Assembly: GCA_963785235.1 (NCBI GenBank)
Contig: CAWAUM010000005.1
Coordinates: 64,001-128,000, forward strand
DNA: 64,000 bases
Direction of reading: 5' to 3'
From: an uncultured delta proteobacterium
GTDB lineage: Bacteria; Desulfobacterota; Desulfomonilia; UBA1062
Shown: positions 8,995-40,511 of the stretch, one piece after another
How the letters are laid out: every line of letters starts with the position of its first letter
How positions within the stretch are numbered: the first letter of the stretch is position 1
Translations under genes and position numbers: made by a program
The notes under the pieces: model-generated
Databases searched by the model: none
Told to the model about the DNA's origin: nothing
The model's input: the letters and a program-made list of their open reading frames with translations, nothing else

Positions 8995-9555
8995 ATGAAG
9001 AAGCAACCCAAGAAAAGGGTGCTTACTAAAGCTGTTAAGGAGCAACACAAGATAAAAAAACCTACTGCAGTTGTGAAGAAGGAATCCACGTTAAAAGAGC
9101 CTACTGCAGCTGTGAGGAAGCAACCCAAGATAAAAAAGCCTGCTACAGCTGTGAAGACGCAACCCAAGTTAAAAGAGCCCACAGCAGTTGTGAAGAAGCA
9201 ACCCAGGTTAAAGAAGCTTACTGCTGCTGTAAAGAGCCAACCCCAGCAGAAGAAGATTTCTCCGGAGGATCTTGGGAAACGATACAAGTGCTATAAGTGC
9301 GGCACCAAGTTTTTTGACCTGGGAAGACCACAACCCCTGTGTCCTTCATGCGGTGAAGACCAGAATAATGAAGAGACAAAGAGGATGCTCAAGCGGAAGA
9401 AGAAACGGCGATCAGCCTACACAGGCAAGACAGACCCTAACATTAGTGTGCCGGAAGAGAGGGATGATGTTATCGAGATTGTAAAAGAAGTCGAGGCTGA
9501 TTATGTTCTAGATATGGATGACATCGTCCTTGAGGAGTATGCAGATACAGAATAA
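8995..9555 (+). CDS. FYDLN-acid (TIGR02300-like) Zn-ribbon protein with basic repeat N-terminus
   Basis: DLGKRYKCYKCGTKFFDLGRPQPLCPSCG plus acidic tail; N-terminal 13-aa Lys-rich repeats. Confidence 0.75.
   Translation: MKKQPKKRVLTKAVKEQHKIKKPTAVVKKESTLKEPTAAVRKQPKIKKPATAVKTQPKLKEPTAVVKKQPRLKKLTAAVKSQPQQKKISPEDLGKRYKCYKCGTKFFDLGRPQPLCPSCGEDQNNEETKRMLKRKKKRRSAYTGKTDPNISVPEERDDVIEIVKEVEADYVLDMDDIVLEEYADTE
8998..9231 (+). repeat. Six ~39-bp in-frame tandem repeats (KKQPKIKKPTAVV-like)
   Basis: KKQPKKRVLTKAV/KEQHKIKKPTAVV/KKESTLKEPTAAV/RKQPKIKKPATAV/KTQPKLKEPTAVV/KKQPRLKKLTAAV. Confidence 0.85.
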
Positions 9556-11705: not shown

Positions 11706-11746
11706 AGGTCCCCGGCACAGAGTCCGGGGACCTTCTCCCTTTTTTT
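11706..11746 (+). terminator. Probable terminator
   Basis: aggtccccgg...ccggggacct hairpin followed by a T-run. Confidence 0.6.
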
Positions 11747-11877
11747 GAATAATCCTGTCTCCGGCCTTTCACTATGGCCTTCGTTGAAATGCACGAAATG
11801 CCTGATAAATAGATGCATTTCTAATTTAATTAATAATGATAGCATATTTTACCGAAAAGGTCAGTGGAGGGCATGTC

Positions 11878-12078
11878 ATGGGCACAGAAAGATCCTCTTA
11901 CAGGATGCTTGGCGGGCTTTCAAAAGGTTTATCCCGAATCATCATCATACTTCGAACAAGAAAGATCTACGGATATAACTCGGTCTTTGAGAGGATCTTT
12001 CGATGCCTTTTTAACACAAGAAGGAATAAAAATCAGTCCGACAGAATCAAGAGGCGCATAGAGATAGAACGCGTCTAG
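11878..12078 (+). CDS. Small conserved peptide (66 aa), copy 1, RTRKIYGYNS motif
   Basis: GGAGG RBS before ATG 11878. 17/23 aa identical to 34759..34947 core, with mostly synonymous codon differences. Confidence 0.7.
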   Translation: MGTERSSYRMLGGLSKGLSRIIIILRTRKIYGYNSVFERIFRCLFNTRRNKNQSDRIKRRIEIERV

Positions 12079-12110
12079 GGGATTACACCCTTTACCACTC
12101 GGATGAAGAG

Positions 12111-13589
12111 ATGGAGCAGATGAGAATGAATACAGGCTGGATGCGCAATCTGGCGTTTCATTATGAAGCAGTGAGGTCGGCATATCCTAATGAGGCGCTC
12201 ATGATCGTCTTCGATATTGACGGCACAATCGTTGATTTGCGCTATATGATACTGTCTGTGTTCAAGGCATATGACCGTGAGAATGGAACACAATATTTCA
12301 ACAACATTCATAGTGATGATATCGCTACACCCTCGTATGACCTTGCGGCCATCCTGCGGGATTTCGCCATACCTGCAGCTATACGGGGTGATATCGCCGG
12401 ATGGTGCAGCGCCAATTTCTGGTCAAAGGCTGCCATTTTAGATTCCCACAAATCCTTCCATGGCGTTCTGGATGTCATCAGGTGGTTTCAGTTACAGCCC
12501 AATACCTATGTAGGCCTGAACACTTCCCGGCCTGAGATGCTTCGCAGCGATACCTTGAGGATCCTCAATACCCTTGGTGAAGAATATCACGTGAAGTTCG
12601 ATGACAAGCTCCTTTTCATGAACAGGGGGGTTCATGTCACACAGGGGAAGAAAAATGGAATCAGACGATTCAAGGATATGGGCTTCCGTATCGTGGCAGT
12701 CATAGATGATGAGAGAGAGAACATCGAATTCATTGAACAGCTTGATCCTGCAGGAGAGATGCTCCTGCTCCATTCCGATGTAATCCTGGATTCATTTCCA
12801 GTGCGAAAAGGCCGTTCGGCCTTACAGGGGAAATTCTTCGACCTGACTGAGCTCATCAGCAAACAGAATCTTCCCCGGCACATGGAATTTGTCTGGCATG
12901 GCGTGGACGATGAGTCTATTCTGCGGCAGTTTCTTGTCTCCTCCGTCCAATGGGCAGAGCTTCATGTACGTAAAGAGAGAAACACTGAAAACCTGATCCT
13001 GCGGAGAAAGCCTTATGCTGAGATGCCACCTTTCCCAGGTGAGAATCCGGTGCGGTTGGATGATTTTCTCTATATCCTGGGTGATGCGGCCAGGGGAGTG
13101 AAGCTTGACCTCAAGGACCCAGGATTGACAGACAGGGTAATCGAGTTACTCAAGGCTTCAGGCTTCACTGATGAAAGGATCTGGTTCACCATCAACATGG
13201 AAGAAATGCGCCGGGGTGGATTGCAGCTCATTGTCAATACCTTTCCAAAGTCCATCAAGCAGTGCCCCGTGGACAGCCTTTACCAGATAATGGTCGCATC
13301 GCCCCAGGAGTCAAAAAAATATCTCGGTATGCTTTCACAGAGCGGGATTGACCGATTTTCTGTCAACTGGAACACGTACGGAAGCAGAAGGATGATCACC
13401 CAGCTTCAGAACTGGGGATTCGATGTCAATATCTATAATGTTCCTGACCTTGAGGCGTTCCTCTCTGCAGCGCTCTTATTGCCCAAATCCATTACCTCAT
13501 TCTTCAATTTTCCCAAGTGGTTCTATACAGGAAGGGTTGATGAAGTGGATCAGCCCGCTTGGACAGGCATGCAGCGCGTTGTAATCTGA
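12111..13589 (+). CDS. HAD-family phosphatase fused to degenerate GDPD-like TIM barrel, copy 1
   Basis: FDIDGT, NTSR and IDDE HAD motifs; C-terminal WHGVDD/WAELHVR/GVKLDLK/VNIYNV; full-length paralog of 33238..34710. Confidence 0.7.
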   Translation: MEQMRMNTGWMRNLAFHYEAVRSAYPNEALMIVFDIDGTIVDLRYMILSVFKAYDRENGTQYFNNIHSDDIATPSYDLAAILRDFAIPAAIRGDIAGWCSANFWSKAAILDSHKSFHGVLDVIRWFQLQPNTYVGLNTSRPEMLRSDTLRILNTLGEEYHVKFDDKLLFMNRGVHVTQGKKNGIRRFKDMGFRIVAVIDDERENIEFIEQLDPAGEMLLLHSDVILDSFPVRKGRSALQGKFFDLTELISKQNLPRHMEFVWHGVDDESILRQFLVSSVQWAELHVRKERNTENLILRRKPYAEMPPFPGENPVRLDDFLYILGDAARGVKLDLKDPGLTDRVIELLKASGFTDERIWFTINMEEMRRGGLQLIVNTFPKSIKQCPVDSLYQIMVASPQESKKYLGMLSQSGIDRFSVNWNTYGSRRMITQLQNWGFDVNIYNVPDLEAFLSAALLLPKSITSFFNFPKWFYTGRVDEVDQPAWTGMQRVVI

Positions 13590-27882: not shown

Positions 27883-28721
27883 CTATTTCAGAACATCGAC
27901 AAAACCTTCTTCCTCGACGAGTTTCTGTCCTTCCTTGCTCAGGATGAAATCGATGAACTTCTGGACATTTCCCGCTGGTTTGCCGTTCGTATACACATAC
28001 AGGTATCTGGAAAGGGGATATTTCTCGGACTGGATGGTCTGTTTGGTGCATTCGATCTTGTCCACAGTCACGGCTTTTACCTTCGGGGTCAGATAGCCAT
28101 GTCCCACATAGCCGATGGCGCCCGGTGTCTGTGCCACAATCTGGGCAACAGCCTGGTTGGATGCAGTAGTAAGGGCATCGGGCCGTACCTTTTCCTTATT
28201 CAGTGCAAGGATTTCGAATGCCTCATAGGTGCCGCTCGATGTATCGCGGTTTACGACAACGATCTTTGCATTCTTGCCGCCGAGTTCGGACCAGTTTGAT
28301 ATCTTACCCGTGTAGATATCCTTGATCTGGGCCTTGGTCAGTGCCTTTAACTGAATTGGTCGGGTGAACGATTACCGCAATGCCGTCCAGGGCTATAGCG
28401 ATCTCATTGGGAATAACCCCTGAGGCCTTTGCCCTTTTCGACTTCTTCGGTCTTTATCTTACGGGAGGAGGTGGCGATATCCGTAGTCTTGTCAAGGAGT
28501 GAGGCAATTCCTACACCCGAACCTCCCCCCTGAACCGAGATCTTTATGCCGGGGTTCTTCTCCATGAATACCTCGGAGGCAACTTGTGCTACCGGCAATA
28601 TGGTTGTCGAGCCCTTGATGGTGATCTCACTGCCTGCTGCATGTATTATTGAGGCGGGCATGGCTATGATAAGGGCTGCCATAATAAACCAAAGAGTTTT
28701 TAAGCTGATATTTGTTCTCAT
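27883..28721 (-). CDS. pstS: Phosphate-binding protein PstS, with two 1-bp insertions (~28432, ~28347)
   Basis: KGSTT, GGGSGVG, then ALDGIAVIVHP, RDTSSGT, GAIGYV, YPLSRYLY across frames. Confidence 0.88.
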
Positions 28722-28763: not shown

Positions 28764-28801
28764 ATCAACGAAGGATGAAGATTATGTTAATTTACTGTGA
28801 A
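28764..28801 (-). promoter_or_regulatory. Pho-box-like 11-bp tandem repeats upstream of pstS
   Basis: atcaa/atgaa/gttaa/gtgaa at 28764, 28775, 28786, 28797 (exact 11-bp period). Confidence 0.75.
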
Positions 28802-28850: not shown

Positions 28851-29832
28851 TTAACGTACCAGGATATAGGTGACAGCGGATATTGCCGCCGCGGCAGGGA
28901 TGGTGAGGATCCAAGCCCACACGATGCGGCCTGCAACACCCCACTTCACCGCACTCATGCGCCGCAGCGAGCCCACACCCATGATGGAACCGGTGATGGT
29001 GTGGGTTGTACTGACAGGTATTCCCATCATCGTGGAGACGAAGAGGGTAATTGCCGCGCCTGTCTCTGCGCAGAAGCCATCCACCGGCTTGAGCTTGGCG
29101 ATCTTCTGACCCATGGTCTTCACGATACGCCATCCGCCGAACATGGTTCCGAGCGCAATGGCTGCCTGGCAGGAGATGACCACCCAGAACGGGATATAGA
29201 ATTTATCGCCAAGGAGGCCGGCACTGAACAACAGCCCTGCGATGATACCCATGGTCTTCTGTGCGTCATTACCTCCATGGCCCAGGCTGTATAACGCGGC
29301 TGATACGAGCTGGCCTTTACGGAAGATATGATCAACACTGCGGGGTGTAGATCTTCTGAATGCCCAGTAGACGATTACCCCGATTGCAAGACCAAGGCAG
29401 AGTCCCACTGTTGGTGAAATGAAGATGAATGAAATGGTCTTGATGATTCCCGACATGACAAGGGCATCGGGTCCGGCCTTTACCAGTGCCGCACCGACCA
29501 TACCCCCGATGAGGGCGTGGGAGGAACTCGTCGGAAGCCCGATAGTACCATGTAATGATATCCCACATGCATGCGCCTACCAGAGTGGCGAGGATAACGT
29601 TTGAGTCGATGATGCCCACATCAATGATCCCCTTGCCGATGGTGTTGGCCACGTGAAGACCCAGGAAGAGAAAGGCGATAAAGTTAAAGAAGGCAGCCCA
29701 GATGACGGCGTGTCGTGGTGAGAGAACGCGAGTAGAAACGACGGTGGCAATGGAGTTTGCAGAGTCATGAAATCCGTTCAGAAAATCAAACGTCAAGGCA
29801 AGAAGGATCAGGAAGGCTATGTAAAGGGTCAT
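28851..29832 (-). CDS. pit: PiT inorganic phosphate transporter, with 1-bp insertion near 29545
   Basis: NGFHDSANS, GLPTSSSHALIGG, HGGNDAQK, PVSTTH motifs. Confidence 0.88.
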
Positions 29833-30608: not shown

Positions 30609-32321
30609 TTATTTTATAGGGAGAATAACGGTAAAGGTGCTGCCCGTGTATGGGGTGCTTGCCACCACGATAGACCCGGCGTGCAGGGTGGCAATATGTT
30701 TTGCAATGGAAAGTCCGAGCCCGGTGCCGCCCATACTCCTTGATCGTGATTTGTCCACCACGTAGAAACGTTCGAATACCCGTCCCAGGTCTTCTCTTGG
30801 TATCCCTATACCTGTATCTTTTACTGTGATGATGGCATTACGATCCCTTACCTCGGCATCCAGCGATATCTGTCCCTTTTCCGTGTACTTCAGGGCGTTG
30901 TCGATGAGGTTTGTGAGGAGCTGTTCAAGCTTGAATGGGTCCCCCATAATGGTGATGGGGCTGATATCGGCAGTTATATCAAGGCCCTTGGCCCTGATCC
31001 TTGGATCGTAGATAGCCAGCACATTGGCAATAAGCTCCTGCAGGTTTACCTCCTCCATGACGAGTTGCGGTTTTTCTTCAAGCTCGGAAAGGGTAAGCAG
31101 GTCATTCACCATGGCGATAAGCCTGTCCGTATGGCGTTTGATAATTCCGAGATATTCCTTTGACTTGGGATCAGCCTCATCCAGGAGTGTCTCGGTAAAA
31201 CCCTTGATGGCAGTGAGCGGGGTTCTGAGTTCATGTGAGACATTGACTACCAGGTCTTTTTTTACCCGTTCTATCAGCTTGGACTCTGTGATGTCATGCA
31301 GGAGCACGACCTTAGACTTCCTGGATGCAAGGGGTGTGATAATGCACAGGAAGGATTTGTCCGCAAGCTCCACCTCACCTGATATGGACCTTTCAGAACC
31401 CTCCTCAATCAAGGTGTTGAGCCTTGTTGATCTGAGCAGCTCCCAGTAATATCTTCCCAGTATCTTTTCAGCAGGCAGGAGCTTTTGGGCACCTGCATTG
31501 AATAGCCGGACCTTTCCTTCTTCATCGAGCACGAGCAGGCCTGCGGTCATGGATGATATGATACTCTCGAGCTCTTCATTGCGGCCGCTGAGTTCTGCAA
31601 AGGAATGTTCGAGCCTTTGCGTCATCTCGTTAAAGCTGTCGGTGAGGTGTCTCATCTCATCATCTGACTTGGGGGGAACCCTCACGGAGAGATCGCCCGA
31701 GGCAACCCTTCTTGCCGCCTTGCTTAGCTCCCGGATGGGTGTGGACAACAGGTGGGAGATGAGTGCTGCAATGACGAGTGAAATGACAATCACCAGGAGT
31801 GTCAGTTGGAGCACCCTTGTTCTAAGGGTCTTCAGCAGGTCGGTGACGTGTGTCAACGGAGTGCTCAGCCGGAGCACACCAATGATCTTTCCCCCTGTCT
31901 CGACAGGCATGGCCATATAGAGAAGGTCCTGCCAGAGCGTTGTGCTGTAACGGATGCTCCTGCCGACCTTTCCGGCAAGGGCCTGGACCACCTCAGGTCT
32001 GTCCAGGTGGTTTTCAAGGGTTAACGGGTCCTTATCCGAATCAGCCAGCACCTTTCCTGTGGTGTCAATCACCGTCACCCGGAGATCGAGCTCACTTCCG
32101 TACCGCTTTGCAAGGGTATTCAGGGCAGCCGTATTATTCCCTTTCAGAGGGGGTATTATCACCTGCTGCAGCGGTATGGCGATATTCTTCAGATTATCTT
32201 CCGTGGTCTGCTCATAATGCGACTTGACGATCTCATAGGTGAATGTGAGGATAAGGATTGCCATGGCGATCATGATCACCAGGTATCCCATGAGCATCTT
32301 GAAAAAGATGGATTTTCTCAT
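30609..32321 (-). CDS. phoR: Sensor histidine kinase PhoR
   Basis: TM-Cache-HAMP-PAS; NVSHELRTPLT; FERFYVVDKSRSR..GGTGLGL. Confidence 0.9.
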   Translation of the reverse strand: MRKSIFFKMLMGYLVIMIAMAILILTFTYEIVKSHYEQTTEDNLKNIAIPLQQVIIPPLKGNNTAALNTLAKRYGSELDLRVTVIDTTGKVLADSDKDPLTLENHLDRPEVVQALAGKVGRSIRYSTTLWQDLLYMAMPVETGGKIIGVLRLSTPLTHVTDLLKTLRTRVLQLTLLVIVISLVIAALISHLLSTPIRELSKAARRVASGDLSVRVPPKSDDEMRHLTDSFNEMTQRLEHSFAELSGRNEELESIISSMTAGLLVLDEEGKVRLFNAGAQKLLPAEKILGRYYWELLRSTRLNTLIEEGSERSISGEVELADKSFLCIITPLASRKSKVVLLHDITESKLIERVKKDLVVNVSHELRTPLTAIKGFTETLLDEADPKSKEYLGIIKRHTDRLIAMVNDLLTLSELEEKPQLVMEEVNLQELIANVLAIYDPRIRAKGLDITADISPITIMGDPFKLEQLLTNLIDNALKYTEKGQISLDAEVRDRNAIITVKDTGIGIPREDLGRVFERFYVVDKSRSRSMGGTGLGLSIAKHIATLHAGSIVVASTPYTGSTFTVILPIK

Positions 32322-32992
32322 ACCTGAACCTTATACCCCACACCCCGGATATTTTTCACAAGTTCGCCTGAAGTGCCAAGTTTGTCCCTGAGGTTCTTGA
32401 TATGGACATCCACGGTCCTGTCGATCACCGCCTTTTCGTTTCCCCACAGGTGGTCGAGTATGCGCTCTCTTGAAAAGACCTTTCCCGGGTTCTGTGCAAG
32501 CAGGTGGAGGATCTTGAACTCAACAGGGGTAAGGTTCACGGGTTGCTGGTCAATAATAACCTCAAATCTTTCAGGGTCAATGGTTATCTCGCCAATGAAT
32601 AATGTTCCATGCTTGGAGGTGGTGGTTCTCCTGAGAACGGCCTTGACGCGTGCAATGAGTTCCCGGGGTGAAAAAGGCTTTGTCAGGTAGTCGTCGGCGC
32701 CAAGCTCGAGTCCCTTCACCTTGTCAGACTCCTGGCCCTTGGCAGTAAGCATGATGACAGGAATGGAGGAGTATCTTGAATCATTTTTCATCATTTTGCA
32801 TAACTCGAATCCATCGAGATCAGGCAGCATGAGATCGAGGATGACAAGGTCAGGGATGCTTGCGGCAAGAAACTTAAGGAAGGAGGTTCCATTGAGAAAA
32901 CTATCTACGGAAAAACCGGCTTTTTTAAGATGTATGCTCAGCAGGTGGATGATATCAGGTTCGTCATCTACAACAGCTATACGGTTACCCAT
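32318..32992 (-). CDS. phoB: OmpR-family response regulator PhoB
   Basis: Receiver plus RTVDVHIKNLR wHTH; position in pho cluster. Confidence 0.88.
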   Translation of the reverse strand: MGNRIAVVDDEPDIIHLLSIHLKKAGFSVDSFLNGTSFLKFLAASIPDLVILDLMLPDLDGFELCKMMKNDSRYSSIPVIMLTAKGQESDKVKGLELGADDYLTKPFSPRELIARVKAVLRRTTTSKHGTLFIGEITIDPERFEVIIDQQPVNLTPVEFKILHLLAQNPGKVFSRERILDHLWGNEKAVIDRTVDVHIKNLRDKLGTSGELVKNIRGVGYKVQV

Positions 32993-33237: not shown

Positions 33238-34710
33238 TCAAATTATGGAACTGAGCATTATAAAGTTTCTCTTTTTGTCTTCTTCCCAAATGCCTTTATA
33301 GAACCACTTCGGGAAGTTGAAGTACGAGGTGATGGACCGGGGAAGCAGGAGGGCGGCTTGCAGGAATGCCTCCAGGTCGGGGACGTTGTAGATATTGACA
33401 TCATAGCCCCAGTTCTGGAGCTGGGTGATAAGCCGCCTGCATTCGTTCGTGCTCCAGTTCACTGAGAACCGGTTGATGCCGCAGCGAGAGTACATAGAAA
33501 GGTACCTTCTGGCCTCGGTTGGAGATGACATGATCAGGTATGCCAGGGAGTCCACCGGGCACTGTTTGATTGAACCTGGGAAGGCGTCTAGTATTTTCTT
33601 GAATCCGCCAAGGTTCAGCCCGGTAAAGTTCCTGTTGATCCAGATCTGTTCATCGGTAAAGCCCAAATCTTTAAGTATAATGCTCACCCTCTCAAGAAGA
33701 CCGTCTTCCTTGATGTCGAGCTTTACCCCTTTGCCTGCATCCTTGAGAATGGACAGGAAGTATTCTAATTTGATTGGTTTCTCACCCGGGGCCTTTAACA
33801 CTTCAGAGAAGCTCTTTCTGCGGATAATAATTGAATCGTCATGAGGATATAATCGAACATGCATCTCCGCCCAGTTTACATTGGAGACAAGGAACTGGCG
33901 GAGTATGGATTCATCATCCACGCCGTGCCAGACAAACTCTATGTGTTTGGGTAACCCTTTTTTACTGATGAGCTCGGTGATGTCATACCTGCTTCCTGCA
34001 ACTGCACCAAGCGGGATATGGGCAGGTGCGGATTCGAAAATGGTGTCCGCATGCAGAAGGAGGATGTCGTGGGCAAGGTCGGTATCATTGATGGCCTTGA
34101 GGTTTGCCGGTTCATTATCGATCATGGCAACGATGCGGAAGCCCATGTCCTTGAAGGCCTGGAGACCTTCGACCTTTGATCCGGCAATATTGTTCCCGGG
34201 GTTCATGTGGAGCAGGTCAGATGAGAACTCAACTCGGTATTCAGCCCCAAGGGTATTGAGGACTTGAAGGGTTTCATGGCGCATATGTTCTGATCTTCCT
34301 GTGTTAAGACCGATGTAGGTACCGGGTTGAAGCTGGAACCACCTGATCACATCCAGGACCCCGTCGAAAGGGCGGTGTGATTGGAGTATGGCGTCAGGGG
34401 ACCAGAAGTTGAGAATGTACCATTCGATGATGTTCGTCTTGTCCGGCTCCGGTATTCCAAGATCATTCAAGAGATCCTCTATCTCGTTTTCGTGAATATG
34501 GATATCATCAGCGCCTAGAAACCTGAAATGCCTTGTCCTATGCTCTCTGTCATAGGCATGAAGGATCGAAACGATCATATACCGGGTATCGAGTATGGTT
34601 CCATCGATATCAAAAATGATCAGCAGCCTGTCTTCCGGGTAAGCATTGCGCATTGATTCATAGTGGAATGCTAGATCGCGCATCCAGCTTGTTGTTGTCT
34701 TTTTTTCCAT
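33238..34710 (-). CDS. HAD-family phosphatase fused to degenerate GDPD-like domain, copy 2
   Basis: FDIDGT, NTGR, IDNE; WHGVDD/WAEMHVR/GVKLDIK/VNIYNVPDLEAFL; paralog of 12111..13589. Confidence 0.7.
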   Translation of the reverse strand: MEKKTTTSWMRDLAFHYESMRNAYPEDRLLIIFDIDGTILDTRYMIVSILHAYDREHRTRHFRFLGADDIHIHENEIEDLLNDLGIPEPDKTNIIEWYILNFWSPDAILQSHRPFDGVLDVIRWFQLQPGTYIGLNTGRSEHMRHETLQVLNTLGAEYRVEFSSDLLHMNPGNNIAGSKVEGLQAFKDMGFRIVAMIDNEPANLKAINDTDLAHDILLLHADTIFESAPAHIPLGAVAGSRYDITELISKKGLPKHIEFVWHGVDDESILRQFLVSNVNWAEMHVRLYPHDDSIIIRRKSFSEVLKAPGEKPIKLEYFLSILKDAGKGVKLDIKEDGLLERVSIILKDLGFTDEQIWINRNFTGLNLGGFKKILDAFPGSIKQCPVDSLAYLIMSSPTEARRYLSMYSRCGINRFSVNWSTNECRRLITQLQNWGYDVNIYNVPDLEAFLQAALLLPRSITSYFNFPKWFYKGIWEEDKKRNFIMLSSII

Positions 34711-34758: not shown

Positions 34759-34947
34759 CTAGTACTGCATGCTGGTCCTTGGATTCCTCAACCCTTGCTG
34801 TCTCCGGCTTCTTGTGAAAAGTTGAAAGATTCTTTCACACAGGGAATTGTAACCATAGATGTTCCTTGTACGGAAAATGAGGATTATCTTAGAGGCGTAA
34901 ATTGATACTGTACTCATTACACAAAGGTTGTTGGAATTCTCTTTCAT
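34759..34947 (-). CDS. Small conserved peptide (62 aa), copy 2, RTRNIYGYNS motif
   Basis: GGAG RBS; core matches 11878..12078; same position upstream of the HAD-GDPD gene. Confidence 0.7.
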   Translation of the reverse strand: MKENSNNLCVMSTVSIYASKIILIFRTRNIYGYNSLCERIFQLFTRSRRQQGLRNPRTSMQY

Positions 34948-34991: not shown

Positions 34992-35029
34992 ATGAATTAC
35001 AGATGAACAAAGGATGAATTTATCGTTAA
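34992..35029 (-). promoter_or_regulatory. Four tandem Pho-box-like half sites
   Basis: atgaa at 34992, 35003, 35014 and gttaa at 35025; same motif and period as upstream of pstS. Confidence 0.75.
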
Positions 35030-36560: not shown

Positions 36561-37526
36561 CTAAGCGGCAAAATGATCGTACCCCTTTTTTACACCCTGC
36601 CTGCTGCCATCCTTGAGGATAGAGATGCCGGCTTCTTTCGGCAGGATCTCGCCTACAATCGTGAAGTCGGAAAATTCCTTTTGCAGGGCAGGGATATTAC
36701 CCTTTGAAATCGTGAACACCAGCTCAAAGTCCTCACCGCCGTACAGGGCGTATTCATGGGGATCGCCGGATATCATCAGTGCAGCCTCCATGGTGTCCTT
36801 GGAAAGGGGTATCTTCTCCCAGTTGATGCACGCCCCGGTACCGCTCTCCTCGCAGATATGTGTTACCTCGCTTCCCAGCCCGTCGCTCACGTCGATCATG
36901 GCATGGGCGTAACGGGCAATGGCCTTGCCTTCCCATTCCTGCCGGCATTGCGGTTCCAGGTGCCCTTTCAGGTAGCCGTCTCTCCTGTCGTTCAGGAGGA
37001 GCTTGAGACCTGCCTGGCTCTTGCCCAGGGTGCCGGTTACGCATATGAGGTCGCCCGGGACGGCATGTGAACGCAGGCGTACAAGACCCTTATCCACATC
37101 ACCCACAAGCGCCAGGTTGATCACCAGGTCACGGCCGTGGGTGGTGTCGCCGCCCACAAGGGCAACACCGTGTTTCCCGGCGGAATCGTACAGGCCGCGA
37201 TAGAATTCATCCATGAACTCCACATCGGTTGCCTGTGTCAGTGACAGCGATATAAAGGCCCAGCGCGGTGTTCCACCCATGGCAATGATGTCCGACACAT
37301 TCGACTCCATGAGTTTTTTGCCCACCTGGTAGGGCGTGTGCCATGTAAGGGAGAAGTGGTCGTTTTCCACCATCATGTCGACCGTAACCAGGAGGTATTT
37401 GTCAGCAGTATATTCCAGCACCGCACAATCATCTCCCACACCCTTGATAATGGCCGGGTCATTATACGAAAGGCTTGTGAGGCGCCTGATCAATGCGAAC
37501 TCGCCGCCGATATCCGCTATCTTCAT
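36561..37526 (-). CDS. thiL: Thiamine-monophosphate kinase
   Basis: GEFALI, GDDCA, NVSDIIAMGG, GGDT, DVSDG, GGEDFEL. Confidence 0.93.
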   Translation of the reverse strand: MKIADIGGEFALIRRLTSLSYNDPAIIKGVGDDCAVLEYTADKYLLVTVDMMVENDHFSLTWHTPYQVGKKLMESNVSDIIAMGGTPRWAFISLSLTQATDVEFMDEFYRGLYDSAGKHGVALVGGDTTHGRDLVINLALVGDVDKGLVRLRSHAVPGDLICVTGTLGKSQAGLKLLLNDRRDGYLKGHLEPQCRQEWEGKAIARYAHAMIDVSDGLGSEVTHICEESGTGACINWEKIPLSKDTMEAALMISGDPHEYALYGGEDFELVFTISKGNIPALQKEFSDFTIVGEILPKEAGISILKDGSRQGVKKGYDHFAA

Positions 37527-38794
37527 TTGTGGTAGTGCCCCCGGCATTCCTTGTTGATCTTGGCCGAGCAGAAATCGCCGCACATGGTGCAGACGTCTTC
37601 TCCTTCCTTGCCGGTCTCCTTCCTTATGGCGCGTGCCCTTTCCGGGTTCATAGAGATGTTGTACATGCTCTCCCAGTCCAGGTTGCTCCGTGCCCTTGAC
37701 ATGGCGTCGTCACGGTCGCGTGCGCCCGGTATACCGCGTGCGATATCCGCTGCATGTGCAGCGATCTTTGATGCAATCACCCCGTCGATGACATCCTGAA
37801 TGTCCGGGAGCCCCAGGTGCTCCTTGGGCGTGAGGTAGCACAGGAAGTCTGCGCCAAAGTAGGCTGCAAGTGCCCCGCCGATGGCGCCGGTGAGATGGTC
37901 ATACCCGGGCGAGCAGTCGGTCACCAGCGGGCCCAGAACATAGAAGGGTGCGCCGTTGCACAATTTTTTCTGCAGCTCGATGTTCTCTTTGATCATGTGG
38001 AGCGGCACGTGCCCCGGACCCTCGATCATGACCTGCACGCCCTTTGCCTGTGCCCGGGCAGCCAGCTCGCCCAGGGTCTTGAGCTCTGCGATCTGGGCCT
38101 TATCCGTGGCGTCGGCGAGACATCCGGGACGCAGACCGTCGCCGAGGCTGAGGACCACATCATGCTTCTTCGCCATATCAAGGATCTCGTCATAGCGGGT
38201 ATAGAGCGGGTTTTCCTTGTCATGATGGAGCATCCACTTGATGAGAAAGCTTCCCCCGCGTGATACTACGCCCATTATGCGTGATTTCAGCAGGGGAATG
38301 CACGTGTGCGTAATCCCGCAATGCACGGTAATGAAGTCCACACCGTCGGCGATATGCATCCGGATGGAATCCATGAAGTCATCTTCTGTAAGCAAGGCCA
38401 CATCAGGGCAGCGTACGATGGCCTCATATACGGGTACCGTGCCTATGGGCACCTTGGAGGAATTGATGATCATTGTGCGCATGGCATGGATATCACCGCC
38501 AGTGGAAAGGTCCATTACCGTATCTGCCCCGTACTTGACGGAAACAATGAGCTTCTCAAGTTCTTGAGACGGGTCGGCATTGAAGTTGGAAGTGCCGATA
38601 TTGGCGTTGATCTTAATCTTCAGGCCTTTGCCTATGGCAACGGGGACGCAGTCATGGAGCGCGCTCTTGAGGATCACGGTATTTCCGGCTGCAACATTAT
38701 CCCGGATTTCTTCTGCGCTTAACGGTTCATGCTCGGCCACTGAGCGCATCTCCTTGGAGACCTGTCCTTTTTTTGCATATTCAAGTTGTGTCAT
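37523..38794 (-). CDS. thiC: Phosphomethylpyrimidine synthase
   Basis: KINANIG, DTVMDLST, SLGDGLRPG, CTMCG; under TPP riboswitch. Confidence 0.93.
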   Translation of the reverse strand: MTQLEYAKKGQVSKEMRSVAEHEPLSAEEIRDNVAAGNTVILKSALHDCVPVAIGKGLKIKINANIGTSNFNADPSQELEKLIVSVKYGADTVMDLSTGGDIHAMRTMIINSSKVPIGTVPVYEAIVRCPDVALLTEDDFMDSIRMHIADGVDFITVHCGITHTCIPLLKSRIMGVVSRGGSFLIKWMLHHDKENPLYTRYDEILDMAKKHDVVLSLGDGLRPGCLADATDKAQIAELKTLGELAARAQAKGVQVMIEGPGHVPLHMIKENIELQKKLCNGAPFYVLGPLVTDCSPGYDHLTGAIGGALAAYFGADFLCYLTPKEHLGLPDIQDVIDGVIASKIAAHAADIARGIPGARDRDDAMSRARSNLDWESMYNISMNPERARAIRKETGKEGEDVCTMCGDFCSAKINKECRGHYHK

Positions 38795-39402
38795 AATCCG
38801 AACTCCTTTTGGAACTTTAGAATTTCTGCTCTCACATCCGGTTTGGCTACAACCGCGGATATGGCGCATGCCATATCCGCACCCGCCTCAATGACCAGTC
38901 CGATGTTCGAAAGGTCGATACCCCCGATGGCTACGATTGGCAAATCACAGGCATTCCGGATCGCCCTCAATCCTTCTACACCACATGGCTTCCCTGCGTC
39001 CAGTTTGGTGGCGGTAGTAAAGATGGGGCTCACCCCCAGGTAGTCTGCACCCAGGGCTTGGGCGGCTTTTGCCTCTTCAAGGGTATGCACGGTGACCCCG
39101 ATGATCTTGTCCATGCCCAGGAGCCTTCGGGCCACTTGATAAGGCATGTCTTCCTGACCGATGTGGACACCGTGGGCATCCACTGCCAGGGCAATGTCGA
39201 TACGGTCGTTGATGATGAGCCGGGTGGAGGTTCCCATGCAGATATTCTTTATGAGGAGGGCCTCGTCATACAGCGTTCGCGAAGCTGCTTCTTTGTTGCG
39301 GTACTGTATGATTCCCACATTGCAGGCAACCGCCTTTTCACAATCACTCTTCAACCCTGCGGTGCTTAAGCCGGTGTCGGTGATGAAGTAATAGCCCCTC
39401 AT
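38791..39402 (-). CDS. thiE: Thiamine-phosphate synthase
   Basis: QYRNK, IINDRID, GVHIGQED, VAIGGI; ATGA overlaps. Confidence 0.92.
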   Translation of the reverse strand: MRGYYFITDTGLSTAGLKSDCEKAVACNVGIIQYRNKEAASRTLYDEALLIKNICMGTSTRLIINDRIDIALAVDAHGVHIGQEDMPYQVARRLLGMDKIIGVTVHTLEEAKAAQALGADYLGVSPIFTTATKLDAGKPCGVEGLRAIRNACDLPIVAIGGIDLSNIGLVIEAGADMACAISAVVAKPDVRAEILKFQKEFGL

Positions 39403-40192: not shown

Positions 40193-40257
40193 AAGTCTAT
40201 ACCCCATAATGTATTATAATTTATGCGGGAAGGATATTAGGGAGACTGATTTCTCAT

Positions 40258-40332
40258 ATTGAGTTCCTACGCTGGCATTACCCAGATCAGGTTCAACGGG
40301 TATGATCTCAGGCCCCTTATGGAACCACCCCA
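40258..40332 (-). ncRNA. TPP riboswitch
   Basis: Minus strand reads ggggtg...ctgagatcatacccgttgaacctgatctgggtaatgccagcgtagga; upstream of thiM. Confidence 0.93.
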
Positions 40333-40511
40333 CACGGGCAATACAATACTAGCATTCCGGGAATACCGTCAATAGGAACAACCTGGAGAGAGTTTATTTG
40401 CAGTTATTTCACACACTCATGCCGCATATCCATGGTAGAAAAGGGCATTCATACAATATCAATCATGAATGGAGGACAGTATCTTTGGAAAGCGGCAAGG
40501 GCATTGTACAG

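Follow-up and report, generated by a model that had tools for sequence, protein, structure and literature searches.

Introduction

IF7 and IF17 are small basic proteins that act as inactivating factors of cyanobacterial glutamine synthetase, and the small proteins MgrB and MgtS modulate proteins of signalling or transport when nutrients run short. Proteins of the MgrB/MgtS type are membrane proteins of at most 50 residues with a transmembrane helix. In the leader ORFs SecM, MifM, VemP, TnaC and SpeFL the motif does not lie 12-40 codons before the stop codon, unlike in the small ORF described here. We know of no GDPD or HAD enzyme with a small companion gene of this kind. One report describes the protein YoaI as linking signalling systems in E. 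coli (PMC11429745).

Here, we analysed 64,000 nucleotides of the genome of an uncultured delta proteobacterium of the Desulfomonilia (contig CAWAUM010000005.1, assembly GCA_963785235.1), which we refer to as the window, and in which two small ORFs each precede one of two paralogous genes for a predicted HAD-GDPD fusion enzyme. The encoded proteins resemble IF7 and IF17 in being basic, in having about 65 residues with little stable structure and, under a putative working model, in serving a single enzyme, but there is no sequence relation, and the IF genes are not adjacent to glnA whereas the small gene described here is always directly upstream of that for its presumed partner. With MgrB, MgtS and YoaI they share the character of short stress-linked ORFs that annotation often overlooks, and one of the two copies stands beside phoB and phoR; in contrast to those proteins, the family described here is 54-82 aa long and strongly basic, lacks a hydrophobic span and tracks an enzyme rather than a kinase. 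As in SecM, MifM, VemP, TnaC, SpeFL and ErmBL/ErmCL, the ORF is located directly upstream of another gene and has a short conserved peptide motif between variable flanks, but it differs from these leaders in having conserved protein C-termini and no motif resembling known arrest sequences, and in the absence of an alternative RNA structure, terminator, rut-like tract and signal or membrane segment. The downstream enzyme shares the TIM-barrel fold of the GDPDs GlpQ and UgpQ (PDB 1zcc, 3no3, 3ks5 and 5t9b), has a weak match to the Menorin/FAM151 branch and carries the DxDGT, Lys and Asp motifs of HAD phosphatases; unlike the known enzymes of these groups, the HAD-GDPD fusion is uncharacterised, and all of its Pfam scores fall below the gathering cut-offs.

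Results

Two related small ORFs precede paralogous enzyme genes

A sequence-only reading of the window had drawn attention to two similar small ORFs, and we located both at the positions and on the strands that it had given. Small ORF A (11878..12078, forward strand) encodes 66 aa plus stop with a pI of 11.5 and the core SRIIIILRTRKIYGYNSVFERIF at residues 19-41, and small ORF B (34759..34947, reverse strand) encodes 62 aa plus stop with a pI of 10.6 and the core SKIILIFRTRNIYGYNSLCERIF. A recount returned the reported identity of 17/23 for these stretches, as well as the reported number of about 12 synonymous differences: 12 of the 17 codons for identical residues differ synonymously and the other 5 are the same codon, and nucleotide identity across the 23-residue stretches is 47/69. 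The flanks diverge, again as had been described, with 14 of 54 bases and 2 of 18 residues shared over the 18 codons 5′ of the stretch. BLASTP aligned the two proteins with 20 of 42 residues identical (E = 1e-11).

The ribosome-binding sites proposed for both ORFs are present, GGAGG at 11866..11870 (forward strand), 7 nt 5′ of the ATG at 11878, and GGAG at 34959-34956 ahead of the ATG at 34947, which places the spacing between GGAG(G) and ATG at 7-8 nt in both. The motif, said to end about 110-115 nt before the large gene, ends 110 nt before enzyme gene A (start at 12111) and 114 nt before enzyme gene B (start at 34710); the gap between small ORF and enzyme start is 32 or 48 nt in the two window copies. 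The source genome holds only two copies of the small gene and only two of the enzyme gene. Because the same ORF recurs upstream of 22/22 homologous enzyme genes in relatives, the similarity between A and B is not due to chance. The description of the peptide as unannotated needs one amendment, as public gene calls do list 54 clusters of relatives, all of them 'hypothetical protein' or unnamed.

The small ORFs belong to a protein-coding family

Coding tests were performed on 20 non-redundant loci out of these 22. The core follows the pattern x-T-R-[KND]-x-Y-G-Y-N-S-x3-R-[IF]-x, also written xTRxIYGYNSxxxRIF, in 22/22 loci, and reads QTRKTYRYSSPLTRVL at the most distant one, L015. A start codon is found exactly 26 codons 5′ of the core TR in 22/22 loci, ATG in 21 of them and TTG in L009, where an ATG follows 2 codons further on. 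Because the ATG at this distance is conserved, the start of small ORF A can be regarded as fixed; a GGAG-type site occupies the equivalent position before the start in other family loci. The frame of the small ORF is open in 20/20 loci, whereas stops occur in 18/20 loci for each of the two other sense frames and in 13, 20 and 20 of 20 for the antisense frames.

Within the core (codons 19-42), the summed column entropy amounts to 17.4, 10.6 and 31.6 at codon positions 1, 2 and 3, respectively; residues T27, R28, Y31, Y33, S35 and R39 are invariant and third codon positions are nearly free. Codon periodicity is almost lacking in the N-terminal 17 codons (26.2/22.7/28.2). The ratio dN/dS (Nei-Gojobori), which the sequence-only reading had suggested to compute, ranges from 0.00 to 0.34 for the core, compared with 0.08-0.24 for the enzyme in the same pairs and 0.00-0.98 for the N-terminal 17 codons. 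For the tail, the overall range of 0.18-1.66 comprises values of 0.18-0.37 in those well-diverged pairs that yielded a value, several distant pairs having yielded none, and of 0.51-1.66 in close pairs, which are noisy owing to few changes. Purifying selection along the predicted translation product is hence strong in the core, moderate in the tail in diverged pairs and weaker at the N-terminus. The codon-position entropy and dN/dS of the core together show that selection acts on the peptide and not on the DNA or RNA, as had been proposed from the two window copies, and by these comparative criteria small ORFs A and B are members of a real protein-coding family.

The family is restricted to one clade and linked to a single enzyme

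Among 61 related genomes, the large gene is present in 14, at 22 places, namely in 12/14 other genomes of the same genus and in 1/2 of one further genus; it was not found in the other 26 genera searched. The proposal that the motif should be sought upstream of homologs led to a uniform result in these relatives: the small ORF lies upstream of the enzyme gene on the same strand in 22/22 loci, at a distance of 27-135 nt. The 14 enzyme-bearing genomes all contain as many peptide genes as enzyme genes, and the two-gene module postulated from the window is thus borne out.

We extended the comparison to one genome for each of 185,579 species in GTDB, which yielded 47 loci with relatives of the enzyme. 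The peptide profile matches 20 of these 47, all in MAGs labelled Desulfomonilia, Thermodesulfobacteriota, delta proteobacterium and the like, and with enzymes at least 50% identical to enzyme A. It matches 0/27 loci from Chloroflexota, Actinomycetota, Acidobacteriota, Planctomycetota, Syntrophia-type and other lineages. The motif is thus present at all close homologs but absent from 27/27 distant ones, and absence from homologs in other genomes had been named as an argument against the module; this argument applies to the distant half of the comparison only. Judged from these genomes, the small-protein family does not extend beyond a single Desulfomonilia clade of sulfate-reducer relatives. 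We placed 35 enzymes in a maximum-likelihood tree, in which the 17 with an accompanying peptide gene are monophyletic (support 100/99) and include the A/B split; the tree was rooted at midpoint, and a single origin of the small ORF depends on that root. Protein databases contain 54 clusters of small-protein relatives at 90% identity and 25 credible representatives at 50% identity, all 45-93 aa long and unnamed or 'hypothetical protein'.

The sole exception to the copy-number linkage is genome G014, in which a peptide match occurs without the enzyme. This orphan (L072 3335-3490, on contig G014:C22) has only 51 aa left and contains ...TRNTHGYNS, in which His replaces Tyr31. Because potA follows it, as in L001, L010, L014 and others, the locus is the orthologue of the copy-A locus; the enzyme gene was deleted between the small ORF and potA, and the conserved upstream box described below is intact. 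Position 31 is Tyr in all 21 alignment rows and in the database members examined except P0066, which is near-identical to the G014-type variant. The truncated remnant with its His at position 31 suggests that the small gene seems to lose constraint once the enzyme is gone.

The downstream gene encodes a predicted HAD-GDPD fusion

Enzyme A (12111..13589, forward strand, 492 aa) combines an N-terminal HAD phosphatase domain (DIDGT) with a C-terminal GDPD/Menorin-like TIM barrel, and enzyme B (33238..34710, reverse strand, 490 aa) is its paralog, with 57% identity across 476 residues. The HAD signature FDIDGT is located in the N-terminal half, motif I DxDx(T/V), the conserved Lys and the acidic motif IV are all present, and D35, D37, G38, T39, K180 and D199 are invariant in 16 sequences. 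The Pfam HAD models score under their cut-offs and the Menorin match has an E-value of 0.025. The AF2 model of the enzyme reached a mean pLDDT of 82.1 and a pTM of 0.80, and Foldseek matched its C-terminal domain to PDB entries 1zcc, 2o55, 3no3 and 3ks5 with E-values of 2e-6 to 1.5e-5 and target TM-scores of 0.55-0.61. The HAD signature and the GDPD-type barrel matches make 'HAD-GDPD', the name already used in the sequence-only reading, a fair label for the predicted enzyme at the motif and fold level. Its predicted activity would be that of a cytoplasmic HAD-phosphatase/GDPD-fold phosphodiesterase fusion. The Atlas cluster of the enzyme has 1229 members named 'hypothetical protein', and a literature search on Menorin/HAD enzymes and phosphate starvation returned nothing on this HAD-GDPD fusion among the papers listed.

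A search for clade-specific indels in the peptide-bearing enzymes that a partner might complement revealed only a 3-residue and a 1-residue gap. Single residues do separate the two sets of enzymes. Residue 285 of enzyme A (window positions ~12963-12965), in the GDPD-like domain and two places after the invariant E283, is His in 17/17 peptide-bearing enzymes and Asp in 15/18 enzymes of other phyla; V195/F and E259/Q separate them likewise. The difference at residue 285 may reflect a change of the metal or active site at the point where the small ORF appeared. In the Actinomycetota loci L045, L048, L051-L055 and L069, which have no small ORF, conserved DNA occurs about 60 nt upstream of the enzyme start and the same translated strings recur in different records; this DNA may be a shared operator, and we would guess at GTTCAC-like repeats.

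Copy B heads a candidate phosphate-starvation cluster

The ABC binding-protein gene that precedes small ORF A ends in a strong intrinsic-terminator-like hairpin followed by a T-run (11706..11733, forward strand), so that a new transcription unit begins with small ORF A. When 22 upstream regions were aligned, we found a conserved DNA box, TTAATAATGATAGCATATTTTACCGAAAAG, at 11830..11859 (forward strand), which is present in most family loci about 20-50 nt before the small-ORF start (TTMATAATGAYAGYRTATTYTTCCGAAAAG in the window). This box, which is also kept in the subclade without the 11-bp repeats described next and in the G014 remnant, is a probable promoter or start of the 5′ UTR by its position and conservation. 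The potABCD genes are located downstream of copy A.

Copy B is preceded by four Pho-box-like direct repeats with an 11-bp period (TTAAC-N6-TTCAT-N6-TTCAT-N6-TTCAT; 34992..35029, reverse strand), 45-82 nt 5′ of the ATG of small ORF B, which are the only exact three-repeat match within the 3.9-Mb genome. The same arrangement, TTCAC-N6-TTAAC-N6-TTCAT-N6-TTGAT, is found before the (split) pstS gene (28764..28801, reverse strand). Three or more repeats occur in 9/20 family loci compared with 0/200 control windows, and copy A and its subclade lack them. Immediately after enzyme gene B, with no change of strand, come a gene for a phoB-like response regulator (32318..32992) and one for a PhoR/PnpS-like histidine kinase (30609..32321), the two spanning 30609..32992, and then a PhoU-like TIGR00153 protein, pit, pstS, pstC and pstA. 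Among the B loci, phoBR is nearby at only some. The link to phosphate suggested earlier is consequently supported for copy B, by its pstS-like repeats and its place in the phoB-phoR-pit-pst cluster, but not for copy A, which has no repeats. From the match of the 11-bp repeats to the pstS promoter and from their distribution, control of copy B by PhoB is a reasonable inference, though not a result.

Within this cluster, pstS and pit each appear to be split (27883-28721 and 28851-29832, reverse strand), pstS into ORFs of 105 aa (N-terminal) and 84 aa (C-terminal) and pit into overlapping ORFs of 166 and 216 aa, as a result of frameshifts, pseudogene formation or errors in the assembly. Elsewhere in the window, we noted a TPP riboswitch (40247-40342, reverse strand; Rfam RF00059, 62.9 bits) upstream of a thiamine cluster with thiC (37523..38869) and thiL (36561..37583), and a 186-aa protein (8995-9555, forward strand) in which imperfect repeats (..KKPTAVVKK.. 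/ ..KEPTAAVRKQPKIKKP..) make up the Lys-rich N-terminal half and the C-terminal part matches TIGR02300 (FYDLN_acid).

The small proteins are basic and without a hydrophobic span or recognised relatives

Members of the family have 54-82 residues, a pI of 10.2-12.0 and 10-20 Lys plus Arg. They are probably helical, with an amphipathic segment at residues ~28-46 (hydrophobic moment 0.5-0.65), and they lack a hydrophobic span, an N-terminal signal and a membrane segment, the mean hydrophobicity of 18-residue windows being at most 0.49. The C-termini are kept as protein within groups. In group B, the terminal ...QY is specified by cagtac, caatat or caatac, and all three stop codons (tag, taa and tga) occur after it; other groups end in ...KRRxEIERV, ...RRRMLFDR or ...GKA. 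The core ends at codon 41-42 of 54-82 and thus 12-40 codons before the stop.

Pfam, NCBIfam and PADLOC contain no match for the small protein, and an ESM Atlas search gave a best score of 0.76 and no usable relative. The only Pfam hit across all 21 family members (E = 0.046) and the only hit of a PDB profile search (E = 0.46) were discarded as chance hits. None of 8000 longer candidates scored as a fused or longer form; two long matches of the HMMER scan were rejected as an EGF-repeat protein (P0071) and a tandem-repeat protein (P0072). The peptide is hence neither a member of a family represented in these collections, in agreement with the sequence-only reading, nor a fragment of a known larger protein, which that reading had named as a finding that would count against it. 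In a literature search, the string YGYNS occurred, among the papers covered, only in two unrelated ones on vaccine epitopes. AF2 modelling of the peptide alone gave a pLDDT of 59.9, too low for a fold search, and complex prediction of enzyme and peptide gave scores of 0.01 and 0.00 (mark 0.32), which, as the run had no controls, speak neither for nor against binding.

The intercistronic region shows no features of attenuation

No terminator-like site separates the small ORF from the enzyme gene. RNAalifold, applied to the tail together with the intercistronic region, gave consensus energies of -2.5 (group A) and -3.0 (group B) kcal/mol with 4 and 8 pairs, none of them over the enzyme Shine-Dalgarno site, and single-sequence MFE folds produced different local hairpins at each locus and nothing shared. 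A C-rich, G-poor (rut-like) tract was likewise absent, with C/G ratios of 0.46-1.00 in 20/20 loci, and an Rfam search over the whole window found nothing but the TPP riboswitch mentioned above. The enzyme gene is preceded by its own strong Shine-Dalgarno site. The distance from core to enzyme start is 107-133 nt in 19/20 loci, though stop positions vary.

Twenty public runs contain part of the stretch, each under half of its words. X20, a metatranscriptome, is the only RNA run among them and provided 5 short contigs of a relative, 90-95% alike, over 12049-13358; these contigs exclude 11878-12048 and are uninformative on the 5′ part of small ORF A. One of them bridges the small-ORF tail and the enzyme start, a weak hint of a shared transcript.

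Discussion

Three mechanisms had been put forward for the peptide, and a binding partner of the enzyme, still putative, fits best. In the model we favour, the small ORFs would be true genes that are translated into very basic, probably helical proteins of a lineage-restricted family, and each would be the first gene of a probably co-transcribed two-gene unit whose second gene specifies the predicted HAD-phosphatase/GDPD-fold fusion. Copy B would most likely be transcribed from a PhoB-dependent promoter that heads a phosphate-starvation cluster. The small ORF would have arisen once, in the ancestor of the clade, would have been duplicated together with the enzyme and would decay after loss of the enzyme. 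Rather than a cis-acting attenuator, its product would be an accessory or regulatory subunit acting in trans, which might for instance inhibit or activate the enzyme or direct it to anionic membranes or substrates. Selection on the tail, the conserved C-termini, basicity, the amphipathic segment and the absence of leader features favour a trans-acting protein, and action in trans together with the enzyme, as a putative partner, is our best guess, with a probability of roughly 0.45. Several observations count against it. Conservation is concentrated in a 24-residue core with a weak N-terminus, a pattern that would also suit a nascent-peptide signal; the peptide alone folds with low confidence; no large complementing indel is found in the enzyme; and the repeats are missing in the copy A subclade. 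The near-constant distance from core to enzyme could hint at a positional, cis-acting constraint. Because homologous enzymes in other phyla (27/27 loci) occur without such an ORF, the partner is not intrinsically required by the enzyme.

The spacing and the compact core lead directly to the mechanism that the sequence-only reading had listed first, a cis-acting regulatory leader in which the nascent core stalls or slows the ribosome, perhaps on a metabolite, and ribosome occupancy sets expression of the enzyme. The ORF invariably lies next to the enzyme gene, 27-135 nt 5′ of its start and in the same orientation, as would be expected of such a leader, a 24-residue core has about the length of a nascent chain in the exit tunnel while its flanks are weakly constrained, the core keeps its distance of 107-133 nt from the enzyme start, and the ORF decays once the enzyme gene is lost. 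However, neither a terminator nor a conserved hairpin over the enzyme Shine-Dalgarno site nor a C-rich, G-poor tract exists through which occupancy could be read out, the enzyme gene has a strong Shine-Dalgarno site of its own, and the core ends 12-40 codons ahead of the stop. Moreover, an ORF of 54-82 aa is long for a metabolite-sensing leader, yet it has no signal or membrane segment of the kind found in long secretion monitors. Because terminator, RNA structure and C-rich tract are lacking and because tails and C-termini have kept their protein sequence, we regard a leader of the classical attenuation or arrest type as less likely, and we consider control in cis by the nascent core unlikely overall. 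A non-classical version, in which the core is a new nascent-peptide sensor that pauses mid-ORF, possibly on a phosphate-ester metabolite, and tunes a Pho-linked phosphodiesterase-phosphatase without hairpins or Rho sites, appears more doubtful still; such a sensor would work, for example, through ribosome queuing or mRNA stabilisation.

The accessory subunit that we favour also has to be weighed against a small basic protein that has an independent task within the same stress response and shares no more than a transcript with the enzyme. Such a protein might bind anionic membrane lipids, nucleic acids or polyphosphate, or might modulate PhoR/PhoB as MgrB does PhoQ, and the high pI with 10-20 Lys plus Arg, the amphipathic segment at residues ~28-46, the position of copy B in one string with phoB and phoR and the lack of any need for a partner in enzyme homologs elsewhere would all agree with this. 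The linkage data point the other way: the gene never occurs away from the enzyme gene save for the G014-type remnant, it is kept beside the enzyme at both paralogous loci although phoBR is near only some B loci, and the otherwise invariant Tyr31 was lost after the enzyme deletion. An independent function consequently seems improbable to us.

That the peptide is a substrate or precursor modified or dephosphorylated by the HAD/GDPD enzyme, either RiPP-like or as a phosphopeptide, is very improbable. Four invariant hydroxyl side chains (T27, Y31, Y33 and S35) would be available for modification, but no kinase, protease, transporter or RiPP maturase is consistently adjacent, the peptide has no leader/core architecture and no cleavage motif, and nothing else was found in favour of the earlier suggestion. 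To our knowledge, neither a HAD phosphatase nor a GDPD-fold domain has been described as a peptide maturase. We rejected the RiPP/substrate reading also on its gene context, which consists of potABCD (A) or of phoB/phoR, PhoU-like, pit and pst genes (B) and contains no maturase. Finally, the view that the small ORF is no gene but an incidental frame within a conserved DNA or RNA regulatory element, in whose favour only the absence of any protein-family match can be cited, is already contradicted by codon periodicity, dN/dS and open-frame counts, that is, by three-base periodicity with silent third positions in the core and a frame open in 20/20 loci while others are closed, as well as by the conserved start codon and Shine-Dalgarno site and by the absence of an Rfam match and of conserved structure at the small ORFs, and has next to no standing.

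The small proteins described here are, on well-supported grounds, a new, lineage-restricted family attached to an uncharacterised, probably phosphate-linked enzyme. We regard this as worth an experiment rather than as extraordinary; it amounts to a new family and not to a new principle. Should the nascent-peptide reading prove true, the known arrest motifs would gain a new one. Annotation misses many small proteins, and few of them come with a clear genetic partner, as this small family does. Because of its linkage to a single enzyme, its retention through duplication and its decay after enzyme loss, it offers a clean case in which to study how a new small protein becomes tied to an older enzyme. 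That enzyme is a widespread, uncharacterised HAD-GDPD fusion that appears to be tied to phosphate starvation, and an understanding of the pair could uncover a new step in the way anaerobic bacteria of sediment and peat scavenge phosphate or turn over their membrane lipids.
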